A stretch of DNA of 45,239 bases, from the NCBI GenBank assembly GCA_026395675.1, contig JAPLYF010000084.1, positions 1-45,239 of the forward strand. The letters run 5' to 3'. A program made the translations under genes and the position numbers. This document shows positions 45 through 44,710 of this stretch, one piece after another. The stretch is from Candidatus Parcubacteria bacterium (GTDB lineage: Bacteria; Patescibacteriota; Patescibacteriia; CAIXNZ01). The first letter of the stretch is position 1. Each line of letters starts with the position of its first letter. The notes below the pieces were generated by a model, which searched no databases, had not been told where the DNA came from, and saw only the letters and a list, made by a program, of their open reading frames with translations.

Positions 45-233
45 ACGAAATTACGAATCTATTACAAATGTTACAAAAATTCCAACATATTGGCACTTTG
101 GTTTAATATTTTTTATTTGCTGAATATTTTACAAGGATACTTACCAAAGCGCCTCGCCAAAATATAATTTTGTATTATTTGTAGCACAATTTGTCACAAA
201 GTGATCCCTTCGGGATAAATTTGCTGGGTATCA

Positions 234-4280: not shown

Positions 4281-4288
4281 AGTATTTG

Positions 4289-4330
4289 AATTATGAATTA
4301 CGAATTATGAATTCCGAAATCAGAATTTAC
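4289..4330. repeat. six tandem AATTAYG-like heptads
   Basis: aattatg aattacg aattatg aattccg aaatcag aatttac, read directly. Confidence 0.6.
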
Positions 4331-4353
4331 ATAATTTCATAATTCGGCCTTCG

Positions 4354-4388
4354 CCGACCGAAGTCCCGCCTTGCGGGACGAAGGTCGG
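4354..4388. repeat. REP-like compound palindrome (outer stem / 3x3 loop / GTCCCGC stem)
   Basis: ccgacc gaa gtcccgc ctt gcgggac gaa ggtcgg. Same architecture as 28293-28329 and 28564-28598. Confidence 0.7.
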
Positions 4389-5637: not shown

Positions 5638-6009
5638 TTAATCAATTAATTCCTTGCATTTGCTGCAGATTCTGACTTTTTGCCCTTTTTTCTCGCTGAG
5701 CTGGGGCAGTATTTTGCTTTTCACTCGAGCCGGCCGATTGCATTTTGGGCACATTATCATTAAATTGGAAATATTAAGAGGCGCCGGAAATTCAATTTTC
5801 TGGCCTTTTTCTCCTTGTCGCTTAGGTCTTAAATGTTTAATCGCCAAATTTATTCCTTCAACAGAAGCTTTATTGCGATCAAGAAAAATCTGCAAGACCT
5901 TGCCTTTTTTGCCTTTGTCCTTGCCAGCGATTACTTTTACTTTATCGCCTCTTTTAATTTTTCCGCCGTAGGCGGATCCCGCTTTGCGGGGCATATTCTT
6001 TTTTTTCAT
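5638..6009 (-). CDS. rplX: 50S ribosomal protein L24 (KOW domain, Cys4 C-terminal form)
   Basis: KIKRGDKVKVIAGKDKGKKGKV; CPKC...CSKC. The N-terminal 16 aa are encoded partly by a twin hairpin. Confidence 0.85.
   Translation of the reverse strand: MKKKNMPRKAGSAYGGKIKRGDKVKVIAGKDKGKKGKVLQIFLDRNKASVEGINLAIKHLRPKRQGEKGQKIEFPAPLNISNLMIMCPKCNRPARVKSKILPQLSEKKGQKVRICSKCKELID
5962..5991 (-). repeat. twin GC hairpin element immediately after the ATG at 5994
   Basis: Sense strand: ATG CCCCGC aaa GCGGG a TCCGCC tac GGCGGA. Confidence 0.65.
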
Positions 6010-8957: not shown

Positions 8958-9038
8958 AGTTTTTATGTTAGCTAAACCACGAATTACGCAAAAATTAATG
9001 TTTTAAATGATAATAAGTTCATGATTATTCTTTTTACC

Positions 9039-15607: not shown

Positions 15608-17683
15608 TTATTTTTTCTTCCCTTCAATTATTTTCAAGGCAATATTATTTGGCACTTCAGCATAATGGTCAAATTCCATGGAAAAGGTCGCGCGGCCTTG
15701 GGTGGCTGATCTTAAAGAAGTCGCGTAACCAAACATTTCCGAGAGCGGCACCATGCCATCAACCACTTTCATTTTACCGCGTTCGGTCATTTGAGTAATC
15801 TGAGCTCTTTTGGCATTTAAATCGCCAATCACATCGCCCATAAATTGCTCGGGCACTACCACTTCAATCTTCATGATTGGCTCCAAAATAATTGGCTTGG
15901 CTTTTTTTGCTGCATCCTGAAAGGCCATGGAACCAGCAATCTTAAAGGCAATTTCTGAAGAATCAACCTCGTGATATGAGCCGTCGAATAAAGTTGCTTT
16001 AACGTCAACCACTGGATAACCAGCTAAAATTCCTTTGGTGACTGCTTCTTTAATACCTTTTTCCACAGCTGGAATAAATTCTCTTGGGATAGCTCCGCCT
16101 TTAATCTCATCCACAAATTCAAAGCCCTCACCTCGATCCCGCGGTTCGATTTTTATCCAGCAATGGCCATACTGGCCGCGACCGCCTGATTGTTTTATGT
16201 ATTTGCCTTCAGCTTCTGCCAAACCCTTAACGGTTTCTTTGTAAGCCACCTGGGGCGCGCCGACATTGGCTTCAACCTTAAATTCTCTTTTCATGCGGTC
16301 AACAATGATTTCCAAATGCAATTCGCCCATACCAGAAATAATGGTCTGTAAAGTTTCTTCGTTGGTATGAATTTTGAAAGTCGGATCTTCCTCAGCTAAT
16401 TTCTGCATGGCCATGCCCATTTTTTCCTGATCAACTTTAGTTTTTGGTTCAATGGCCACGGAAATAACCGGTTCAGGAAAAATAATTTGTTCCAAAATAA
16501 TTGGTTTTTTCTCATCGCATAAACTATTGCCTGTAATTGTATTTTTTAAGCCAATGGCAGCTGCGATTTCACCAGAAAAAACTTCGTCCACATCTTCGCG
16601 CGCATTAGCATGCAAACGCACAATGCGGCCAATTCTTTCCTTATCGCCTGTGGCAGTATTTAAAACATATGAGCCCGCTTTTAAACTGCCGGAATAAACC
16701 CGGAAAAAAGCTAATTTGCCGACAAAGGGATCAGTGGCAATTTTAAAAGCCAAAGCGCAAAATGGCCCGTCATCTTTGGCTTCGCGAATTTCTTCTACGC
16801 CAGTGTCGGGATTTTTGCCTTTGATCGGAGGCACATCTAAAGGCGACGGCAAATAGGCAACCACTGCATCCAAAACAAACTGGACACCAATATTTTTTAA
16901 AGCAGAACCGCATAAAACCGGATGAAAATCATTTCTGACTGTTGCCTTGCGGATCACCTGTTTAACTTGGTTTAAATCCAGTTCTTCGCCTGCTAAATAT
17001 TTATTCATTAAGTCCTCATCATTTTCCGCTACTTTTTCCAGTAAAACTTTCCTTAATTCTTCAACTTTGGCTTTTAGATTTTCCGGGATTGGTATTTCTT
17101 CAACATTCTGACCATATTCGCCAGTGAATTTATAAGCTTTCCTTTCTAATAACTCAACCAGGCCCTCAAAAGTTTCTTCAGCGCCAATCGGAATCTGAAC
17201 TGCTACGGCATGGGGAGACAAACGTTCCTGTATTGATTCTAAGCTCATATAAAAATCCGCGCCCATCTTATCCATTTTATTAACAAAAGCAATTCTCGGT
17301 ACATTATATTTTGCTGCTTGGTGCCAGACAGTTTCAGATTGTGGTTCTACGCCTTGCGAACCATCAAAAACAGCCACAGCCCCGTCCAAAACGCGTAATG
17401 ACCTTTCAACTTCAACAGTAAAATCAACGTGTCCTGGGGTATCAATTATATTAATGCGGTGATCCTTCCAAAAACAAGTTGTAGCGGCAGCAGTAATAGT
17501 AATGCCTCTTTCTTTTTCCTGTTCCATCCAGTCCATTTCTGCTTCGCCATAATGGACTTCACCGATTTTATGTTTTTTCCCAGTATAAAACAAGACACGT
17601 TCTGTCATGGTTGTTTTGCCAGCATCAATGTGAGCCATAATGCCGATATTTCTTGTTTTTTCTAATGCATATTCTCTAGGCAT
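15608..17683 (-). CDS. fusA: elongation factor G
   Basis: [21 protein letters not shown]; 691 aa. Confidence 0.98.
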
Positions 17684-17755
17684 AAAATAAATTATTAACT
17701 GAACCGCGAATTTTTTTCACGAATTACACTAATTTTTAATTTGTGTGATTAGTGG

Positions 17756-18109
17756 TTATAAATTAGTGTTTAAGTTTACATCTTTAAATCGCTCTTCGTT
17801 CTTTTTTAACTTATTAAAAAATTCTTTCTCTAAATCAACATCCAACAAATAAGAAAGAATCATTGTGTAAATAAATACATCGGTTAGTTCTTCTTTTATT
17901 AAGCTAACGAAATCCTTTTGTCCATCAGTAGATAACCGATAATTTCTTACTTTTTCACGATAATATTTTTTAACTAAATTAGCGAGTTCCCCAGTTTCTC
18001 CAGCTAAACAAGTCATCAGATAAAGTAACCTATCTGGCGTCAGTTTTATTTCTCCGAAATGCATTTTATCAAAATCTTTCTGTTTCTCTATGATATCTTT
18101 TAAATCCAT
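17756..18109 (-). CDS. MazG-like all-alpha nucleotide pyrophosphohydrolase
   Basis: LAGETGELANLVKK ... EELTDVFIYTMILSYLLDVDLE ... N..R is the typical MazG/NTP-PPase helix pair. Confidence 0.6.
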   Translation of the reverse strand: MDLKDIIEKQKDFDKMHFGEIKLTPDRLLYLMTCLAGETGELANLVKKYYREKVRNYRLSTDGQKDFVSLIKEELTDVFIYTMILSYLLDVDLEKEFFNKLKKNEERFKDVNLNTNL

Positions 18110-19038: not shown

Positions 19039-19075
19039 AATAAAAATATAAATTTCAAATTTTAAATTAAAAATA

Positions 19076-19105
19076 TCAGCCAGTGGCTGATCAGCCTTTG
19101 GCTGA
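19076..19105 (-). repeat. twin hairpin element in the rpsL 5' UTR
   Basis: Sense strand: tcagcc aaa ggctga tcagcc act ggctga. Confidence 0.75.
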
Positions 19106-19850: not shown

Positions 19851-19879
19851 TTGATTTTAAATGATTTATCTGTTAAACT
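19851..19879 (+). promoter_or_regulatory. promoter TTGATT-17-TAAACT for rpmB
   Basis: Read directly; would give an mRNA leader of about 155 nt. Confidence 0.4.
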
Positions 19880-19893
19880 GGGTATATTGATAA

Positions 19894-20013
19894 CTGAACT
19901 ACGAAATTTTAATCACGAAAACTCGCGAAATTATAAGTAGTGGTTCAATTTAAATTTTAGTGCCTTTCGTCCCAAAGGGATCCCTTCGGGATGAAAAAAT
20001 TTTCGTGGTTCAG
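19894..20013 (+). repeat. 120-nt TIR-bounded element (copy 1) in the rpmB leader
   Basis: Ends ctgaactacgaaa / tttcgtggttcag are complementary. The 48-nt core at 19965-20012 is identical to RC of 41468-41515. Confidence 0.8.
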
Positions 20014-20040
20014 ACCCACATTATTAATTATCATATCATT

Positions 20041-20220
20041 ATGTCAAGAACTTGTGAAATCTGCGGCCGCGGACCAATGACAGGCGCTAGCCGTAGTCAC
20101 TCCAATATAAAAACATTAAAAAGAAAATTTATAAACCTGCAAACCAAAAAGATTGATGGCAAGAAAATTAGAATTTGCACGAGTTGCTTAAAAACAAGGG
20201 TCAAAGCAGACCATACTTAA
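20041..20220 (+). CDS. rpmB: 50S ribosomal protein L28
   Basis: MSRTCEICGRGPMTGASRSHSN.KT.R.F..NLQ. The ORF-track start at 19960 lies inside the repeat. Confidence 0.9.
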   Translation: MSRTCEICGRGPMTGASRSHSNIKTLKRKFINLQTKKIDGKKIRICTSCLKTRVKADHT

Positions 20221-20748: not shown

Positions 20749-20778
20749 TCCGCCAAAGGCGGATCCGCCACTGGCGGA
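20749..20778 (+). repeat. twin hairpin element 19 nt after tRNA-Pro
   Basis: tccgcc aaa ggcgga tccgcc act ggcgga. Confidence 0.75.
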
Positions 20779-25423: not shown

Positions 25424-25780
25424 ATGGAAAAATTTAGGTTTTTAAAATGGCCAGTTTATAAAGATGCTAAAAAAATATTTGGTCTAATTTTGGAAACAGT
25501 TGAAAAATTCCCTAATCATATAAGATTCAGTATTGGCCAACAATTGATAAGAGCAGCTTTTTCAATAATTTTAAACATCGCCGAAGGTAGCGGCAGGAAA
25601 ACAGACAAAGAATTGAAAAGATATTTTGACATATCCCTTGGTTCGTGTTATGAATTATTAGCCTGTGCCGATACCTTGTCAGAACAAAATTTTATATCAC
25701 AAGAACTTTTTGAAAAAATCTATGTTTCAATTGATGAAATAACCAATCAACTCGGCGGTTTTAAAAAATCCATAAAATAG
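25424..25780 (+). CDS. four-helix-bundle protein (23S rRNA intervening-sequence / Avd-like family)
   Basis: QLIRAAFSIILNIAEGSGR.T.KE..RYF.ISLGSCYEL is the family signature. Confidence 0.8.
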   Translation: MEKFRFLKWPVYKDAKKIFGLILETVEKFPNHIRFSIGQQLIRAAFSIILNIAEGSGRKTDKELKRYFDISLGSCYELLACADTLSEQNFISQELFEKIYVSIDEITNQLGGFKKSIK

Positions 25781-25810: not shown

Positions 25811-25813
25811 CAG

Positions 25814-25861
25814 CGGGGTATAGCGAAGTGGTATCGCGGTCCGACGTACGTCGGACAGATC
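25814..25861 (+). other. tRNA-like gene, 5' segment (acceptor, D arm, palindromic arm, variable region)
   Basis: cggggta ta gcga agtggta tcgc g gtccgacgtacgtcggac agatc. Confidence 0.6.
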
Positions 25862-25885
25862 GGCGGGTTTAAATAAATTAATTGT

Positions 25886-26164
25886 ATGGAACAGGGATTT
25901 GTATACATTATACAAAGTCAAACATCAAACAATTATTATACTGGCTCAAGTGAAAATCCTACCAAAAGACTTTCCGAACATAATCGGGGAAAAGTAAAAT
26001 CCACCAGGAATAAAGGTCCCTGGATTTTAAAATTCACACAAGGTTTTCCTACCATAAAAGAGGCTAAGCAAATTGAATACATGATTAAGAAACTGAAAAG
26101 AAGGGATTATCTAGAAAGAATTATTCAAGATGGATATATTAAGATGAAAATAAACGGGCTGTAG
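25886..26164 (+). CDS. small GIY-YIG nuclease family protein (YhbQ/Slx1-like)
   Basis: GFVYIIQS....YYTGSS.N...RL.EHN.GK...T...GPW. The last 3 codons and the stop lie inside tRNA-Pro. Confidence 0.8.
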   Translation: MEQGFVYIIQSQTSNNYYTGSSENPTKRLSEHNRGKVKSTRNKGPWILKFTQGFPTIKEAKQIEYMIKKLKRRDYLERIIQDGYIKMKINGL

Positions 26165-26228
26165 CGAAGCTGGCTATCGCGCCACGTTCGGGACGTGGAG
26201 ACCGGCGGTTCAAATCCGCCCAGCCCGA
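26155..26228 (+). tRNA. tRNA-Pro (anticodon CGG)
   Basis: cgggctg ta gcga agctggcta tcgc g ccacg ttCGGga cgtgg agacc ggcgg ttcaaat ccgcc cagcccg a. Confidence 0.88.
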
Positions 26229-26235
26229 CCCATAG

Positions 26236-26287
26236 CGCGGTCCGACGGACGTCGGACAGATCCCGAGTTCGAATCTCGGTACCCCGA
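26236..26287 (+). other. tRNA-like gene, 3' segment (palindromic arm, T arm, acceptor)
   Basis: cgcg gtccgacggacgtcggac agatc ccgag ttcgaat ctcgg taccccg a. The 3' acceptor is perfectly complementary to 25814-25820. Confidence 0.6.
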
Positions 26288-26306
26288 AAACTTACCAAAG
26301 CTGTTT

Positions 26307-26362
26307 GGCGCGCCCCGATGAACGTCGGGGAGGTCGCCCCGCAGTGCGTGGCCAGCCCGACC
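26307..26362 (+). pseudogene. tRNA-Pro-derived 3' fragment with the anticodon arm replaced by a palindrome
   Basis: ggcgcg ccccgatgaacgtcgggg aggtcgc...ccagcccgacc. Shares aggtcgc and the 3' end with tRNA-Pro. Confidence 0.5.
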
Positions 26363-28292: not shown

Positions 28293-28329
28293 GCCCTCCG
28301 TAGTCCCGCTGTGCGGGACGTAGGAGGGC
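28293..28329. repeat. REP-like compound palindrome
   Basis: gccctcc gta gtcccgc tgt gcgggac gta ggagggc. Confidence 0.75.
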
Positions 28330-28563: not shown

Positions 28564-28598
28564 TCCACCGAAGTCCCGCTCGGCGGGACGTAGGCGGA
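28564..28598. repeat. REP-like compound palindrome abutting the ndk stop codon
   Basis: tccacc gaa gtcccgc tcg gcgggac gta ggcgga. The outer stem closes fully only on the minus-strand RNA, through one G.U pair. Confidence 0.75.
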
Positions 28599-29257: not shown

Positions 29258-30130
29258 TTATTTTTCTGTTTTTATTTTTAAACTTTGCCCGTCGCTGGTA
29301 AAGTTTATTGTCCCGTTTAAATCCGTTCTAAAAATTTTAATATTGTCTTGTTCTAATCTTTTTACAGTAATCAGATGCGGGTGGCCATATGAATTATTTG
29401 CTCCCACTTCAATCACTGCGTATTGCGGCTTAATTGCGTCTAAAAATTCCTGGCTGCTTGAATATTTGCTGCCATGATGGCCAACCTTTAAAACATTGGC
29501 AGTTAAATCAACTTTGCTTGCCAGCAAATCTTGTTCAACTGGCAGGCCAGCATCACCAGTAAATAAAAAAGATTCATTTTTATAAATTAATTTGGCCACA
29601 ATTGAAGAATCATTTAAATTTTCAAAGTTTTTCTGGCTGATGTCATTAAGCGGATATAGAATTTTTAAGTCCAGGTCCTGGCCCAAAACAATGTCTTTAG
29701 GGCCATCGGCTTTGTCAGTTTCAATATTTTGTTTTTTAATTTCCTCAAGCAAAGCTAAGTAGGGCGGCGAATTGTTTTTTACTTCGGTCAGTAAAACTTT
29801 TTTAACCTTATAGCGTCTTAAAATTTCAACTAACCCAATTACGTGATCAGTGTGGGGATGAGTTAAGACAACCAAATCAATATCTTTGTCATAAAATGCC
29901 AAATTCTTGCCTAGCGCTGACAAAACTTTGTTATCCGGGCCGCCATCAATTAAAATGTTTTGCTGATAAGGAGTTTTTATCAAAATAGAATCGCCTTGGC
30001 CCACATCCAGAAAATCAACTTCCAGATTTTGCCTCTGATTTTGCGAGTGCGCTGTAAAGGCAATTAATAAAAAAATAATCAGCAAAGCACTGCCCAAAAT
30101 CTTTGAAATTTTTCTTAAATATCTTTCCAT
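29258..30130 (-). CDS. membrane-anchored metallo-beta-lactamase fold protein (ComEC C-terminal nuclease-like domain as a separate ORF)
   Basis: FLDVGQGDSILI; VLTHPHTDH; VGHHGS; N-terminal TM anchor. Confidence 0.8.
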   Translation of the reverse strand: MERYLRKISKILGSALLIIFLLIAFTAHSQNQRQNLEVDFLDVGQGDSILIKTPYQQNILIDGGPDNKVLSALGKNLAFYDKDIDLVVLTHPHTDHVIGLVEILRRYKVKKVLLTEVKNNSPPYLALLEEIKKQNIETDKADGPKDIVLGQDLDLKILYPLNDISQKNFENLNDSSIVAKLIYKNESFLFTGDAGLPVEQDLLASKVDLTANVLKVGHHGSKYSSSQEFLDAIKPQYAVIEVGANNSYGHPHLITVKRLEQDNIKIFRTDLNGTINFTSDGQSLKIKTEK

Positions 30131-40493: not shown

Positions 40494-41450
40494 CTATTTC
40501 TTCCCCCAGTCAAAAATCGCCCCTTTCACTCCCTTAATATCCTGGATGTACTTATACGCAGTCAAAGCCGCCTTGGCGCCTTCGGCCGCGGAGATTACAA
40601 TTTGCTTAAATTTTATGTTGGTTACATCGCCCGCAGCCAGAACTCCTGCCAAACTTGTCTGACACTGCTCATCAATTATAATTTCATTATTTTCATTTAA
40701 TTTAACCAGCTCTTTAATTGGCGTAGCATCAACAGTGTGGCCGATTTCAATAAAAATACCGTCTAATTTTAATTCTTCTTGGGCTTTAGTTTTAACATCT
40801 TCAATGACCATGCCTTTAACAAATTTGTCACCTTTAATTTCAGTCACAATTTTATTTAATTTTAATTCAATATTTGGGTCTGACTTAATTCTTTCAATTA
40901 AAATTGCCTCACCTCTAAATTCTTCCCGGCGGTGGATCAAAAAAACTTTTTGCGCGATCTTTGCCAAATAATCAGCTGATTCCAGGGCAGAATTGCCGCC
41001 CCCCACCACAGCCACAATTTTATTCTTAAATAATGGGCCATCGCAAGTCGCGCAGTAGGCAACTCCCTTGCCCGTAAATTCTTTTTCACCAGGCACCTGC
41101 AAATTGCTGGGAGTTTTGCCAAAAGCTAAAATTATGGCCAAGGAAAGGTACTCATTGTTGTGTGCGGTTTTAATTTGAAAATGATTATTTGTTTTTTCAA
41201 TTTTAACAATTTCTTCATATTTAAACTGGCAGGCAAATTTTTCCGCCTGCTTTTGGAATTTTTGCATTAATTCATAGCCATTGACTTTATCAAAACCAGG
41301 ATAATTTTCCACCCAGCTCGCACTGCTAGCTTGACCGCCAATATCTTTGGTTAAAATTAAGGTTTTTAAATTGCGGCGCGAAGCATAAATACCGGCAGTT
41401 AAGCCGGCTGGACCGCCGCCAATAATGATTAAGTCGTATTGTTCTGCCAT
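40494..41450 (-). CDS. trxB: thioredoxin-disulfide reductase
   Basis: GGGPAG; CATCDG redox centre; GGGNSA. Confidence 0.95.
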   Translation of the reverse strand: MAEQYDLIIIGGGPAGLTAGIYASRRNLKTLILTKDIGGQASSASWVENYPGFDKVNGYELMQKFQKQAEKFACQFKYEEIVKIEKTNNHFQIKTAHNNEYLSLAIILAFGKTPSNLQVPGEKEFTGKGVAYCATCDGPLFKNKIVAVVGGGNSALESADYLAKIAQKVFLIHRREEFRGEAILIERIKSDPNIELKLNKIVTEIKGDKFVKGMVIEDVKTKAQEELKLDGIFIEIGHTVDATPIKELVKLNENNEIIIDEQCQTSLAGVLAAGDVTNIKFKQIVISAAEGAKAALTAYKYIQDIKGVKGAIFDWGKK

Positions 41451-41468
41451 AGTTTTATAATGTTATTT

Positions 41469-41572
41469 GAACCACGAAAATTTTTTCATCCCGAAGGGAT
41501 CCCTTTGGGACGAAATACACTAAATAAAGTTGAGTCCTTTTCGTGTAATTTCGTGCCAATATTTCGTGGTTC
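41469..41572 (-). repeat. 104-nt TIR-bounded element (copy 2) in the trxA-trxB spacer
   Basis: Ends gaaccacgaaa / tttcgtggttc. Same 48-nt core as copy 1, in the same orientation relative to the downstream gene. Confidence 0.8.
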
Positions 41573-41577
41573 CGTTA

Positions 41578-41901
41578 TCAAATTATCTTTTCTAACTTAG
41601 ATTTTAAACCGTCCAAAGTTTGCGCTCCCACCCATTCTTCAATCACCTGTCCATTTTTAAAAATCTTAAAAGCCGGTATGGACATTATATCATACTTTTG
41701 CGCCAGATCCTGATTTTCATCAACATTGCATTTGGCGATTTTAATGTCTTTACCCTCAAATTCTTTGGCTAATTGTTCTAAAATTGGCACCATCATTTTG
41801 CAGGGACCGCACCATTCTGCCCAAAAATCAACTAAAACAGGAATATTGCTCTTTAAAACTTCTTCTTCAAAGTTAGCTATAGTTAATTTAATTTCAGGCA
41901 T
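41578..41901 (-). CDS. trxA: thioredoxin
   Basis: WAEWCGPCK. ATG at 41901 is preferred over the TTG at 41913. Confidence 0.93.
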   Translation of the reverse strand: MPEIKLTIANFEEEVLKSNIPVLVDFWAEWCGPCKMMVPILEQLAKEFEGKDIKIAKCNVDENQDLAQKYDIMSIPAFKIFKNGQVIEEWVGAQTLDGLKSKLEKII

Positions 41902-41906
41902 AACTA

Positions 41907-41935
41907 TTGACAAAATTTATTAATTATGCTATAAT
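41907..41935 (+). promoter_or_regulatory. perfect consensus promoter TTGACA-17-(TGC)TATAAT
   Basis: Read directly; divergent from trxA; drives the gene at 42004. Confidence 0.6.
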
Positions 41936-42003: not shown

Positions 42004-42561
42004 ATGCTAAAAAAGTATAGTTGGTTAACTCCCTCAGTTTTTGAGGAGTTATATTGGCCATATCTAGTCCTGGCCATCTTCCCGGTTACTGCATTCTTTG
42101 CCTCACCCTTGCCTTTGTTTTTGGTCCTTGCCTCTATAATCGCCATGAATTTGGCAAAGATTGAAGAGGAAAAGCAAAATAGGTTTAAAAGGGCCAAGCA
42201 ATACAGAGAGAACCGGGAGAAAGAACTGCAGGCCGAAAATGCTGAGCTGGCAAAAAATGGTTTAGCGCTAATACCGCCGTTTAATTTCGGCCCTCTGGAA
42301 ATCCGGTACAAGGCGATCATCATGGATGCCCTGCGCGATTTAACAAAGTACTTCTTCGCCGGACTGGTTTGCTACAGCGCAGGGAAAATTGTCCATTTCC
42401 TTTTTACCGGTATGGGGATCTTTTCAACGGTCCTATTCGCTTACGTCAAGATACTTACGGTTCTTCTACTGGGCGCGACCTCAATCGTTCTTTTATTCCT
42501 CTTACTCCTCTGGCTATCAGACAAGGCCTACGAATTCACTATTAACAAATCCGAGGGCTAA
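42004..42561 (+). CDS. hypothetical membrane protein with a central charged coiled segment
   Basis: Two TM helices, a K/E/R-rich helix, then three TM helices. SD aaggag. Confidence 0.65.
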   Translation: MLKKYSWLTPSVFEELYWPYLVLAIFPVTAFFASPLPLFLVLASIIAMNLAKIEEEKQNRFKRAKQYRENREKELQAENAELAKNGLALIPPFNFGPLEIRYKAIIMDALRDLTKYFFAGLVCYSAGKIVHFLFTGMGIFSTVLFAYVKILTVLLLGATSIVLLFLLLLWLSDKAYEFTINKSEG

Positions 42562-44602: not shown

Positions 44603-44710
44603 ATTTACTAAAATTCAAAAATAAAAATTACAATTCAAAATCCAAAATTTTAATTTTTAAACTGTAATTTTGCACTTTAAACTTTAAATTTTAAATTTAA
44701 TACTTATTAA

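Follow-up and report, generated by a model that had tools for sequence, protein, structure and literature searches.

Two imperfect palindromes in a Patescibacterial genome, one upstream of rpmB and the other upstream of trxB, share an identical 48-nt string, which comparison with relatives shows to be made up of a conserved gene-proximal 3' arm and a 22-nt GC twin hairpin restricted to this lineage. This revises the preliminary description of the DNA, in which the string was called the core of MITE-like or structured-leader elements; it is not the core of a mobile unit. The palindromes form a sequence-novel, small and lineage-restricted intergenic family, which is closer to known bacterial intergenic palindromes than to a classic jumping element or a riboswitch. 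We think it probable, with modest confidence, that the copies are paralogous members of this family, inherited at their sites and yet exchanging sequence between them, and that they act as transcribed hairpins in the manner of ERIC and REP elements.

The rpmB and trxB palindromes and their shared string

The stretch of DNA analysed here (the window; 45,239 nt, GC about 37%) covers the str/S10/spc ribosomal-protein region, and homologues of its TrxB and EF-G place it near Candidatus Buchananbacteria within the Patescibacteria. Contigs of relatives are designated by L numbers. Copy 1 (19894..20013, +; 120 nt) lies in the 5' region of rpmB (20041..20220, +), which encodes the 59-aa ribosomal protein L28 (Pfam Ribosomal_L28 on orthologues). 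Copy 2 (41467..41574, -; 108 nt) fills the spacer between trxA (41578-41913) and the thioredoxin reductase gene trxB (40494..41450, -). A covariance model built from eight rpmB, rplS and trxB elements scores these copies at 92 and 68 bits, respectively. As originally described, copy 1 ends 27 nt upstream of the rpmB ATG and copy 2 about 18 nt before the trxB ATG at 41450, and both are bounded by terminal inverted repeats of 11-13 bp (CTGAACTACGAAA...TTTCGTGGTTCAG in copy 1 and GAACCACGAAA...TTTCGTGGTTC in copy 2); each element as a whole is an imperfect palindrome.

The family has a common anatomy, with an element length of 75-120 nt. Its left arm carries three (C)AC(G/T)AAA words spaced by 14 and 10 nt, and its right arm the mirrored words TTTAGTG, TTTCGT and TTTCGTG at ~9-10 and 14 nt, the hairpin not counted. 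An extension of the outermost word gives GAACCACGAAA/TTTCGTGGTTC, and GAACCAC/GTGGTTC(AG) closes the palindrome. In copy 1 the left-arm words stand at ~19900-19906, 19914-19920 and 19924-19930 (+) and the right-arm words at 19956-19962 (TTTAGTG), 19965-19970 (TTTCGT) and 20001-20007 (TTTCGTG), all on the + strand. Repeated words had been recognised at the outset with a spacing of 10-13 nt; copy 1 has spacings of 14 and 10 nt, and copy 2 of 13 and 10 nt. The words of L088, the best-preserved relative, form a nested hairpin with three tiers.

The 48-nt string TTTCGTCCCAAAGGGATCCCTTCGGGATGAAAAAATTTTCGTGGTTCA occurs exactly twice in the 45,239-nt window, at 19965-20012 (+) and 41468-41515 (-), as first reported, and no occurrence is expected in shuffles. 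The similarity of the two copies extends to 57 nt at 96%, in line with the 54 matches in 56 positions previously counted when the preceding ttagtg was included. A strict twin-hairpin scan places the 22-nt GC twin hairpin CCCAAAGGGATCCCTTCGGGAT at 19971..19992 (+), where it separates TTTCGT from GAAAAAA in the 3' arm of copy 1, and at the same 3'-arm position in copy 2 (41488..41509, -). It consists of TCCC-AAA-GGGA/TCCC-TTC-GGGA and sits between the second and third 3'-arm words. None of the orthologous rpmB elements compared has the hairpin at this precise point, and it is likewise missing from the trxB elements of L003, L005 and L101. It is found in none of the 11 metagenome contigs that match the right-arm pattern (see below), and a scan of viral contigs for it gave no match.

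What surrounds the hairpin is, by contrast, widely shared: the rpmB and trxB copies of the window, L088 and L090 all carry an identical GAAAAAATTTTCGTGGTTCA. With the hairpin removed, 3' arms are identical at 31-36 of 37 positions across paralogues and species, against 26-33 of 37 for the 5' arms; since the 3' arm is the better conserved of the two, pairing alone does not explain the conservation. The 3' arm of the trxB copy in the window matches the rpmB arm of L090 at 36/37 positions and that of its own orthologue in L005 at just 31/38. Because the gene-proximal arm is nearly identical between paralogues, copying or gene conversion between copies is indicated. From the sequence comparison, gene conversion between paralogues, which would also have moved the hairpin from one copy to the other, is the likely cause of the 48-nt identity, although two targeted insertions of the hairpin would give the same pattern.

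Two further occurrences of the twin hairpin lie outside these copies. In L002, the element before a CoA-binding gene carries it with swapped loops. In the window, a diverged copy of the 32-nt twin-hairpin unit (189..220, +; 81% identical) stands 3' of adk, outside any word palindrome, and its first stem is altered on both sides from TCCC/GGGA to TCAC/GTGA.

Copies at other sites and turnover between relatives

A third copy (17699..17774, -), shorter and without the twin hairpin, fills the spacer before fusA (15608-17683). The covariance model recovers it from outside the training set at 47 bits (E about 8e-8), which we count in favour of a genuine family. This spacer measures 72 nt in the window, as against 14-22 nt in relatives. 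A degenerate partial copy that terminates in TTCGTGGTTTAG occupies the rplB-rpsS spacer (8973..9030, -; covariance-model match 8981-9030, 19 bits), which is 81 nt long in the window and 10-20 nt in L086, L088 and L089. Finally, a weak relative with AATTCGT/AATTCAT words precedes rplF (4286..4347, -; 21 bits, E about 0.2). The E values of these two weak members are 0.2-0.6. Of the partial copies proposed earlier, the one at 17698-17757 thus proved solid (47 bits), those before rplF and rpsS score only weakly (4286-4347, 21 bits; 8981-9030, 19 bits), and the one at 44-66 is a word match alone that the covariance model missed. The count for the window is three solid and two weak members in 45 kb.

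The family is low-copy. When 241 million JGI metagenome records were scanned with a degenerate right-arm pattern that tolerates the hairpin, only 11 contigs matched. Four of them are orthologous rpmB leaders, one carries an element before rplS (L096), and one carries a half copy in reverse orientation 4 nt before atpC (L093), so that rplS and atpC are added to the gene contexts of the family. Another four (L091, L095, L098 and L099) are coding or apparently unrelated, and the context of L097 is unclear. A 332-kb contig of a sister genome holds one exact match to the right end. A search of genome contigs anchored on the M50 peptidase returned relatives at ≤56% identity only, all without the motif.

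The two named copies can be followed across related genomes. The rpmB element is present at the orthologous place in L086/L087 (EF-G 97% identical), L088 (95%), L090 and L092, with flanks, words and spacing as in the window and without the twin hairpin. At the same site L089 (EF-G 94%) has kept the flanks and the promoter region around an interior hairpin made from GTAAAAC/GTCTTAC words. The trxA-trxB spacer is more varied. A CACGAAA-type element without a hairpin fills it in L005 (Buchananbacteria RBG_13_39_9); L003, L101 and L102 share the ends CGGAACCAC...GTGGTTCAG around words swapped to CACWGAT; and in L103 the spacer is 9 nt long and the site empty. In L002 (TrxB 95%), the palindrome is replaced by a leader of the infB type. 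Sister species thus have the rpmB and trxB copies at orthologous positions, and the copies did not arrive at these sites recently. The check for presence or absence in sister strains proposed with the preliminary description therefore has a divided outcome, in that the rpmB copy is kept in four relatives while the trxB site is filled, empty (L103) or replaced (L002).

Single sites elsewhere also differ between relatives. L002 has a family member of the CACGAAA type before its CoA-binding gene, where the covariance model finds no recognisable element in the window. The rpsS and fusA spacers are enlarged in the window only, among the relatives compared. An 89-nt palindrome with perfect terminal inverted repeats and TACAGAT words separates rpsG from a mazG-like gene in L089 (9529-9617); this spacer is 5 nt long in the window and in L087. 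These comparisons show that the two named copies are old residents and that the family nevertheless turns over, by gain, loss, expansion and exchange at single sites.

The exchange of leaders may extend beyond this family. The trxB leader of L002 (729-836) is ~85% identical over ~95 nt, up to the ATG, to infB leaders (window 44603-44700; L003:6760-6881), whose words are AAAGTT/TTTGAATT; by sequence, a whole leader has been copied between unrelated genes, from infB to trxB. Homology between the rpmB and rplS copies likewise runs past the terminal inverted repeat into the -10 box and the stretch preceding the ATG. In many distant Patescibacteria, hairpin-forming repeats of other words precede rpmB and fusA; one of these (L046) has CTACGAA words at both genes, and the same word types reappear at different sites in different genomes. 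We also observed tandem arrays of CACGGAT words with the same 14/9-nt spacing downstream of trxB in L101 (2458-2855), which belongs to the genome that carries the TACAGAT palindrome of L089. A T-arm-like hairpin that follows copy 1 (GTGG-TTCAGAC-CCAC) is not conserved in the orthologues.

Class of the elements and candidate functions

The elements stop 11-27 nt short of the start codon, at housekeeping genes without a Shine-Dalgarno sequence: rpmB, trxB and fusA, and rplS in a relative. GGAGG-type Shine-Dalgarno sequences precede only about 7 of the roughly 49 genes in the window. A putative rpmB promoter, TTGATT-17 nt-TAAACT (19851..19879, +), matches at 8/12 positions, just under the cut-off of the scanner, and its position is conserved in L087, L088 and L089; it would put the element in the 5' UTR of rpmB. 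The corresponding promoter in L008 is TTGATT-17-TATCAT (9/12), and the rplS element of L096 stands 3' of TTGACG-17-TAAACT (9/12). The other copies occupy spacers that are 5-22 nt long in relatives, which places those copies inside operons. Given these positions, within operons or downstream of a sigma-70-type promoter, transcription through the elements seems likely, and the copies are likely to be present as 5'-leader or intercistronic RNA.

The full elements reach folding energies of -38.5 kcal/mol (copy 1) and -37.0 kcal/mol (copy 2), well beyond those of shuffles (z = -5.4 and -5.6). In an alignment of nine sequences, with the structure taken from one of the nine, 82% of cells pair, as compared with 26-48% when the partners are slid. 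Covariation is weak (7 double changes in 29 pairs, mostly from L003), the pair 46-81 at the fourth word position is unpaired in 7/9 copies, G-U and A-C mismatches number 9 and 4 with the poorly aligned L002 copy excluded, and antisense and sense folds are about equally stable. A consensus structure sought with RNAalifold was uninformative because the words are able to pair in several registers. Since covariation is weak, one word is mismatched and the strands show no asymmetry, a DNA-level role, or no role at all, fits these folding data as well.

The elements match no described family. At gathering thresholds, an Rfam search of the whole window returned two tRNAs only, and two permissive searches likewise yielded no family for the element (best sub-threshold matches 12-18 bits, E > 2), in agreement with the initial impression that it had not been described. 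BLAST of the element against plasmids and phages gave no match. Several other candidates were set aside. A fixed-position promoter element (-35-like, sigma-54 or ECF-like) is rejected, as the interval that separates the motif from the ATG or a -10-like box is variable (11 to 27 nt). Integron attC sites, DnaA boxes and Zur/Fur/ArgR boxes, compared by eye, offered no convincing match and belong to the wrong genomic context. TIGR-Tas guide RNA arrays, which are common in CPR and combine short repeated motifs and palindromic stems in non-coding DNA (bioRxiv 10.64898/2026.09.09.750476), resemble the present elements in their Patescibacterial host and in their short palindromic repeats in non-coding DNA; the window has no box C/D motifs in register, no spacer pairs and no Nop-domain Tas gene.

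The initial reading of a MITE-like or structured-leader family holds in so far as the elements are dispersed, bounded by inverted repeats, hairpin-forming and variably present; they fit neither a classic MITE, with no target-site duplication seen and a low copy number, nor a gene-specific leader, given the unrelated genes and the weak covariation. Their closest functional analogue is ERIC (IRU) of Enterobacteria, to which we liken them by description and not by a sequence test. ERIC elements are imperfect palindromes of ~127 bp that lie in transcribed intergenic regions, including the inside of operons, at low to moderate copy number; many copies are orthologous between species and some vary in presence, internal insertions create size variants, and an effect on mRNA decay has been proposed. 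As imperfect palindromes of ~100 nt in intergenic spacers that are predicted to be transcribed, with partly orthologous copies, the present elements fall into this class, taken as a functional class and not as a sequence family. The likeness covers the size (~100-130 nt), the intergenic transcribed setting, the partial orthology and the internal insertions. There is no sequence similarity, however, and here mirrored 7-nt words stand at fixed spacing, interiors are swapped wholesale, copies abut start codons in one orientation and the host belongs to the CPR.

Other bacterial palindromes share fewer of these traits. Correia elements (Neisseria MITEs), RUP and BOX measure ~100-150 bp, have terminal inverted repeats, lie beside genes with which they are co-transcribed and can affect the expression of their neighbours; the hairpins of Correia elements are processed by RNase III, and these elements duplicate a TA at the target, occur in hundreds of copies and are often polymorphic between strains. 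Size, inverted repeats and gene-adjacent hairpins agree with what we see here, whereas the TA duplication, high copy number and strain polymorphism do not. REP/BIME and REPIN sequences are extragenic palindromes in operon spacers that stabilise upstream mRNA and lack a target duplication; REP units are 20-40 nt long, rich in GC and present in many copies, and a conserved GTAG and a RAYT transposase go with them. In this genome the small GC twin hairpins are similar to REP doublets in both size and placement, but the main element is AT-rich, ~100 nt long and low-copy, and no RAYT was seen in the window.

By analogy with these systems, we favour a transcribed hairpin for mRNA processing or stability over a DNA-level site or a neutral palindrome. 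The copies are inherited at the same sites over species-level distances while single sites are gained, lost, expanded or exchanged, and the near-identity of the gene-proximal arm points to copying or gene conversion between copies. A single insertion would have introduced the 22-nt hairpin, and gene conversion would later have carried it into the other copy. The transcript would form a long hairpin with the AU-rich start region outside it and unpaired, and this hairpin could serve as a processing or stability determinant that uncouples or tunes the downstream cistron, like REP/BIME, ERIC and Correia elements. Almost nothing is known about the control of gene expression in CPR/Patescibacteria, and spacers before core translation genes in the window are filled with fast-evolving palindromes. 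With its exchangeable interiors, conserved spacing and conserved arm, the family offers a handle for testing leader hairpins against a binding factor.

A classic MITE, that is, a non-autonomous element mobilised in trans by a transposase acting on its GAACCAC...GTGGTTC ends and subterminal CACNNNN words, with the copies as recent transpositions, seems unlikely to us. It would account for the 11-13 bp terminal inverted repeats, for subterminal words arranged like those of Tn7 or Mu-type ends, with direct orientation in the left arm and inverted orientation in the right one, and for ends that are conserved around swapped interiors (CACGAAA versus CACWGAT) in L003, L101 and L102. Filled and empty sites among relatives (trxA-trxB, the L002 CoA-binding gene, and the rpsS and fusA spacers) are also what insertion polymorphism would produce. 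Against this, none of the filled/empty comparisons (rplB-rpsS, fusA, rpsG-mazG and trxA-trxB) revealed a target-site duplication, and the very low copy number in the 45-kb window, the 332-kb sister contig and the 241 million records is not that of a MITE with many copies. Pfam annotation found no transposase among the window proteins. The rpmB and trxB copies are, moreover, orthologous across genomes at roughly 80-90% nucleotide identity, full copies are all oriented alike relative to the downstream gene and end short of its ATG, and the rpmB/rplS homology continues beyond the terminal repeat as described above.

Comparably doubtful is a neutral origin, by which AT-rich spacers would grow through replication slippage and quasi-palindrome template switching, the products being functionless and tolerated. 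Palindromes of unrelated words make up many further spacers, both of the window and of distant Patescibacteria, the fusA copy resembles an in-situ expansion of a pre-existing TTCGTAATTCAG, and selection for pairing is weak, all of which would suit such a by-product. Yet the 3' arm is near-identical over paralogues and over species just 78-90% identical in coding DNA, word spacing is conserved, and the hairpins consistently end before the start region. Homologous leaders also stand at non-orthologous genes, which requires copying and not local slippage alone. If the elements were neutral, they would add only modestly to the known bacterial intergenic repeats.

Slightly less credible again is a DNA-level operator array, in which CAC(G/T)AAA words, chiefly the gene-proximal TTTAGTG-TTTCGTG-TTTCGTG, would bind a factor that co-regulates translation and redox genes. 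Such an array is consistent with spacings of ~10 and 14 bp that are kept even where the words change, with the higher conservation of the 3' arm, with folding that lacks strand asymmetry and with ACGAA-type words that recur upstream of both rpmB and fusA in the distant L046. However, the trxB element of L003 uses CACWGAT and the rpmB element of L087 uses CACGAAA; these two contigs appear to represent one genome, to which they are assigned from their shared sample and similar divergence from the window, and a single sequence-specific factor is therefore unlikely. The variable distance to the ATG or -10-like box counts against an operator as well; in addition, the sites lie downstream of the predicted promoter, are spread over about 100 bp, and are dispensable at trxB in L103.

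A gene-specific regulatory RNA (a riboswitch, a ribosomal-protein autoregulatory leader or an attenuator) can be given hardly any weight: despite the 5'-leader position at ribosomal-protein genes, the stable fold and the terminator score of the analogous rpsL-leader twin hairpin, one and the same element type precedes rpmB, rplS, trxB and fusA, its interior sequence is replaceable, it matches no Rfam family, and neither the rpmB nor the trxB copy has a terminator-like site on its sense strand, the second hairpin being followed by GAAAAAATTTT and no U-tract.

A wider and more speculative extension of the hairpin reading, to which we assign little probability, is that whole leaders of ~100-130 nt, each beginning just past the -10 box or the upstream stop codon and reaching as far as the ATG, are portable cassettes copied between unrelated housekeeping genes without Shine-Dalgarno sequences. 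The 14/10-nt mirrored words would then form an array for a putative RNA- or DNA-binding factor that co-ordinates expression, and the small GC twin hairpins would be mini-insertions of a second, independent class that enter such leaders and act as attenuators. The suggestion stems from the CACGAAA family that rpmB, rplS, trxB and fusA have in common and from the infB-type leader at trxB in L002.

Further hairpins, start codons and a tRNA-like region

Twin hairpins of other sequence occur in the window and its relatives. The rpsL 5' leader (19075-19104, -) contains a 30-nt GC twin hairpin, CAGCCAAAGGCTGATCAGCCACTGGCTGAT, with CAGCC stems, 3' of a good promoter (TTGACT-17-TAGAAT, 19166-19138). 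L089 has the identical hairpin, which is precisely missing in L087 and L088; from this clean indel, twin hairpins act as separate indel units elsewhere too. Its second hairpin together with a T-run scores as an intrinsic terminator, so that the rpsL twin hairpin may be a leader attenuator. Further examples of the form S-loop-S'-AT-S-loop-S' were noted at 20749-20778, 5960-5996 and 189-220 of the window and at L103:2458-2545, with stems CCGCC, CCGCC/CCCGC, TCAC/TCCC and GCC/CCC, which makes them a structural family whose stems differ among members; most of them stand at the 3' ends of genes or tRNAs. The central GATC of the twin hairpins was considered as a methylation or restriction signal and rejected, GATC being as frequent as expected (ratio 0.98).

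GC hairpins of other types were seen as well. The trxB element of L102 (1338-1500) is of the L003 type and has a 66-nt GC-rich hairpin inside a CACTGAT word, so that GC hairpins have entered palindromes of this kind on two independent occasions. In the window, a nested GC hairpin family (4355-4387, 28295-28327 and 28565-28597) combines an outer stem with GTCCCGC-loop-GCGGGAC, and its members are 76-85% identical to one another.

The palindromes also bear on gene annotation. The hairpin region of copy 1 is an open, in-frame 5' extension of rpmB (GTG ORF 19960-20220, 86 aa), and the L28 orthologue is called at 71 aa in L087 and at 59 aa in L088; such repeats can mislead the calling of start codons. 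Elsewhere in the window, the genes that start at 30130 (-) and 31662 (-) have an extended -10 box (TGcTATAAT) 7 nt ahead of their ATG and may produce leaderless mRNAs; the region upstream of the gene starting at 42004 (+) was noted together with these.

Finally, tRNA-like fragments cluster at 25813-26361, around a 92-aa ORF (25886-26164, GIY-YIG-like by eye) and a tRNA-Pro(CGG) (26155-26230). Positions 25832 and 26233 mark the two occurrences of a 30-nt direct repeat, TAKCGCGGTCCGACGKACGTCGGACAGATC. The stretch 26257-26288 resembles a T-arm/acceptor 3' piece and 26306-26361 another part of a tRNA-Pro, and a 23S-rRNA-IVP/bAvd-like gene (25424-25780) adjoins the region. Judged from this arrangement, an inserted cassette appears to have split or duplicated a tRNA gene at 25813-26361.
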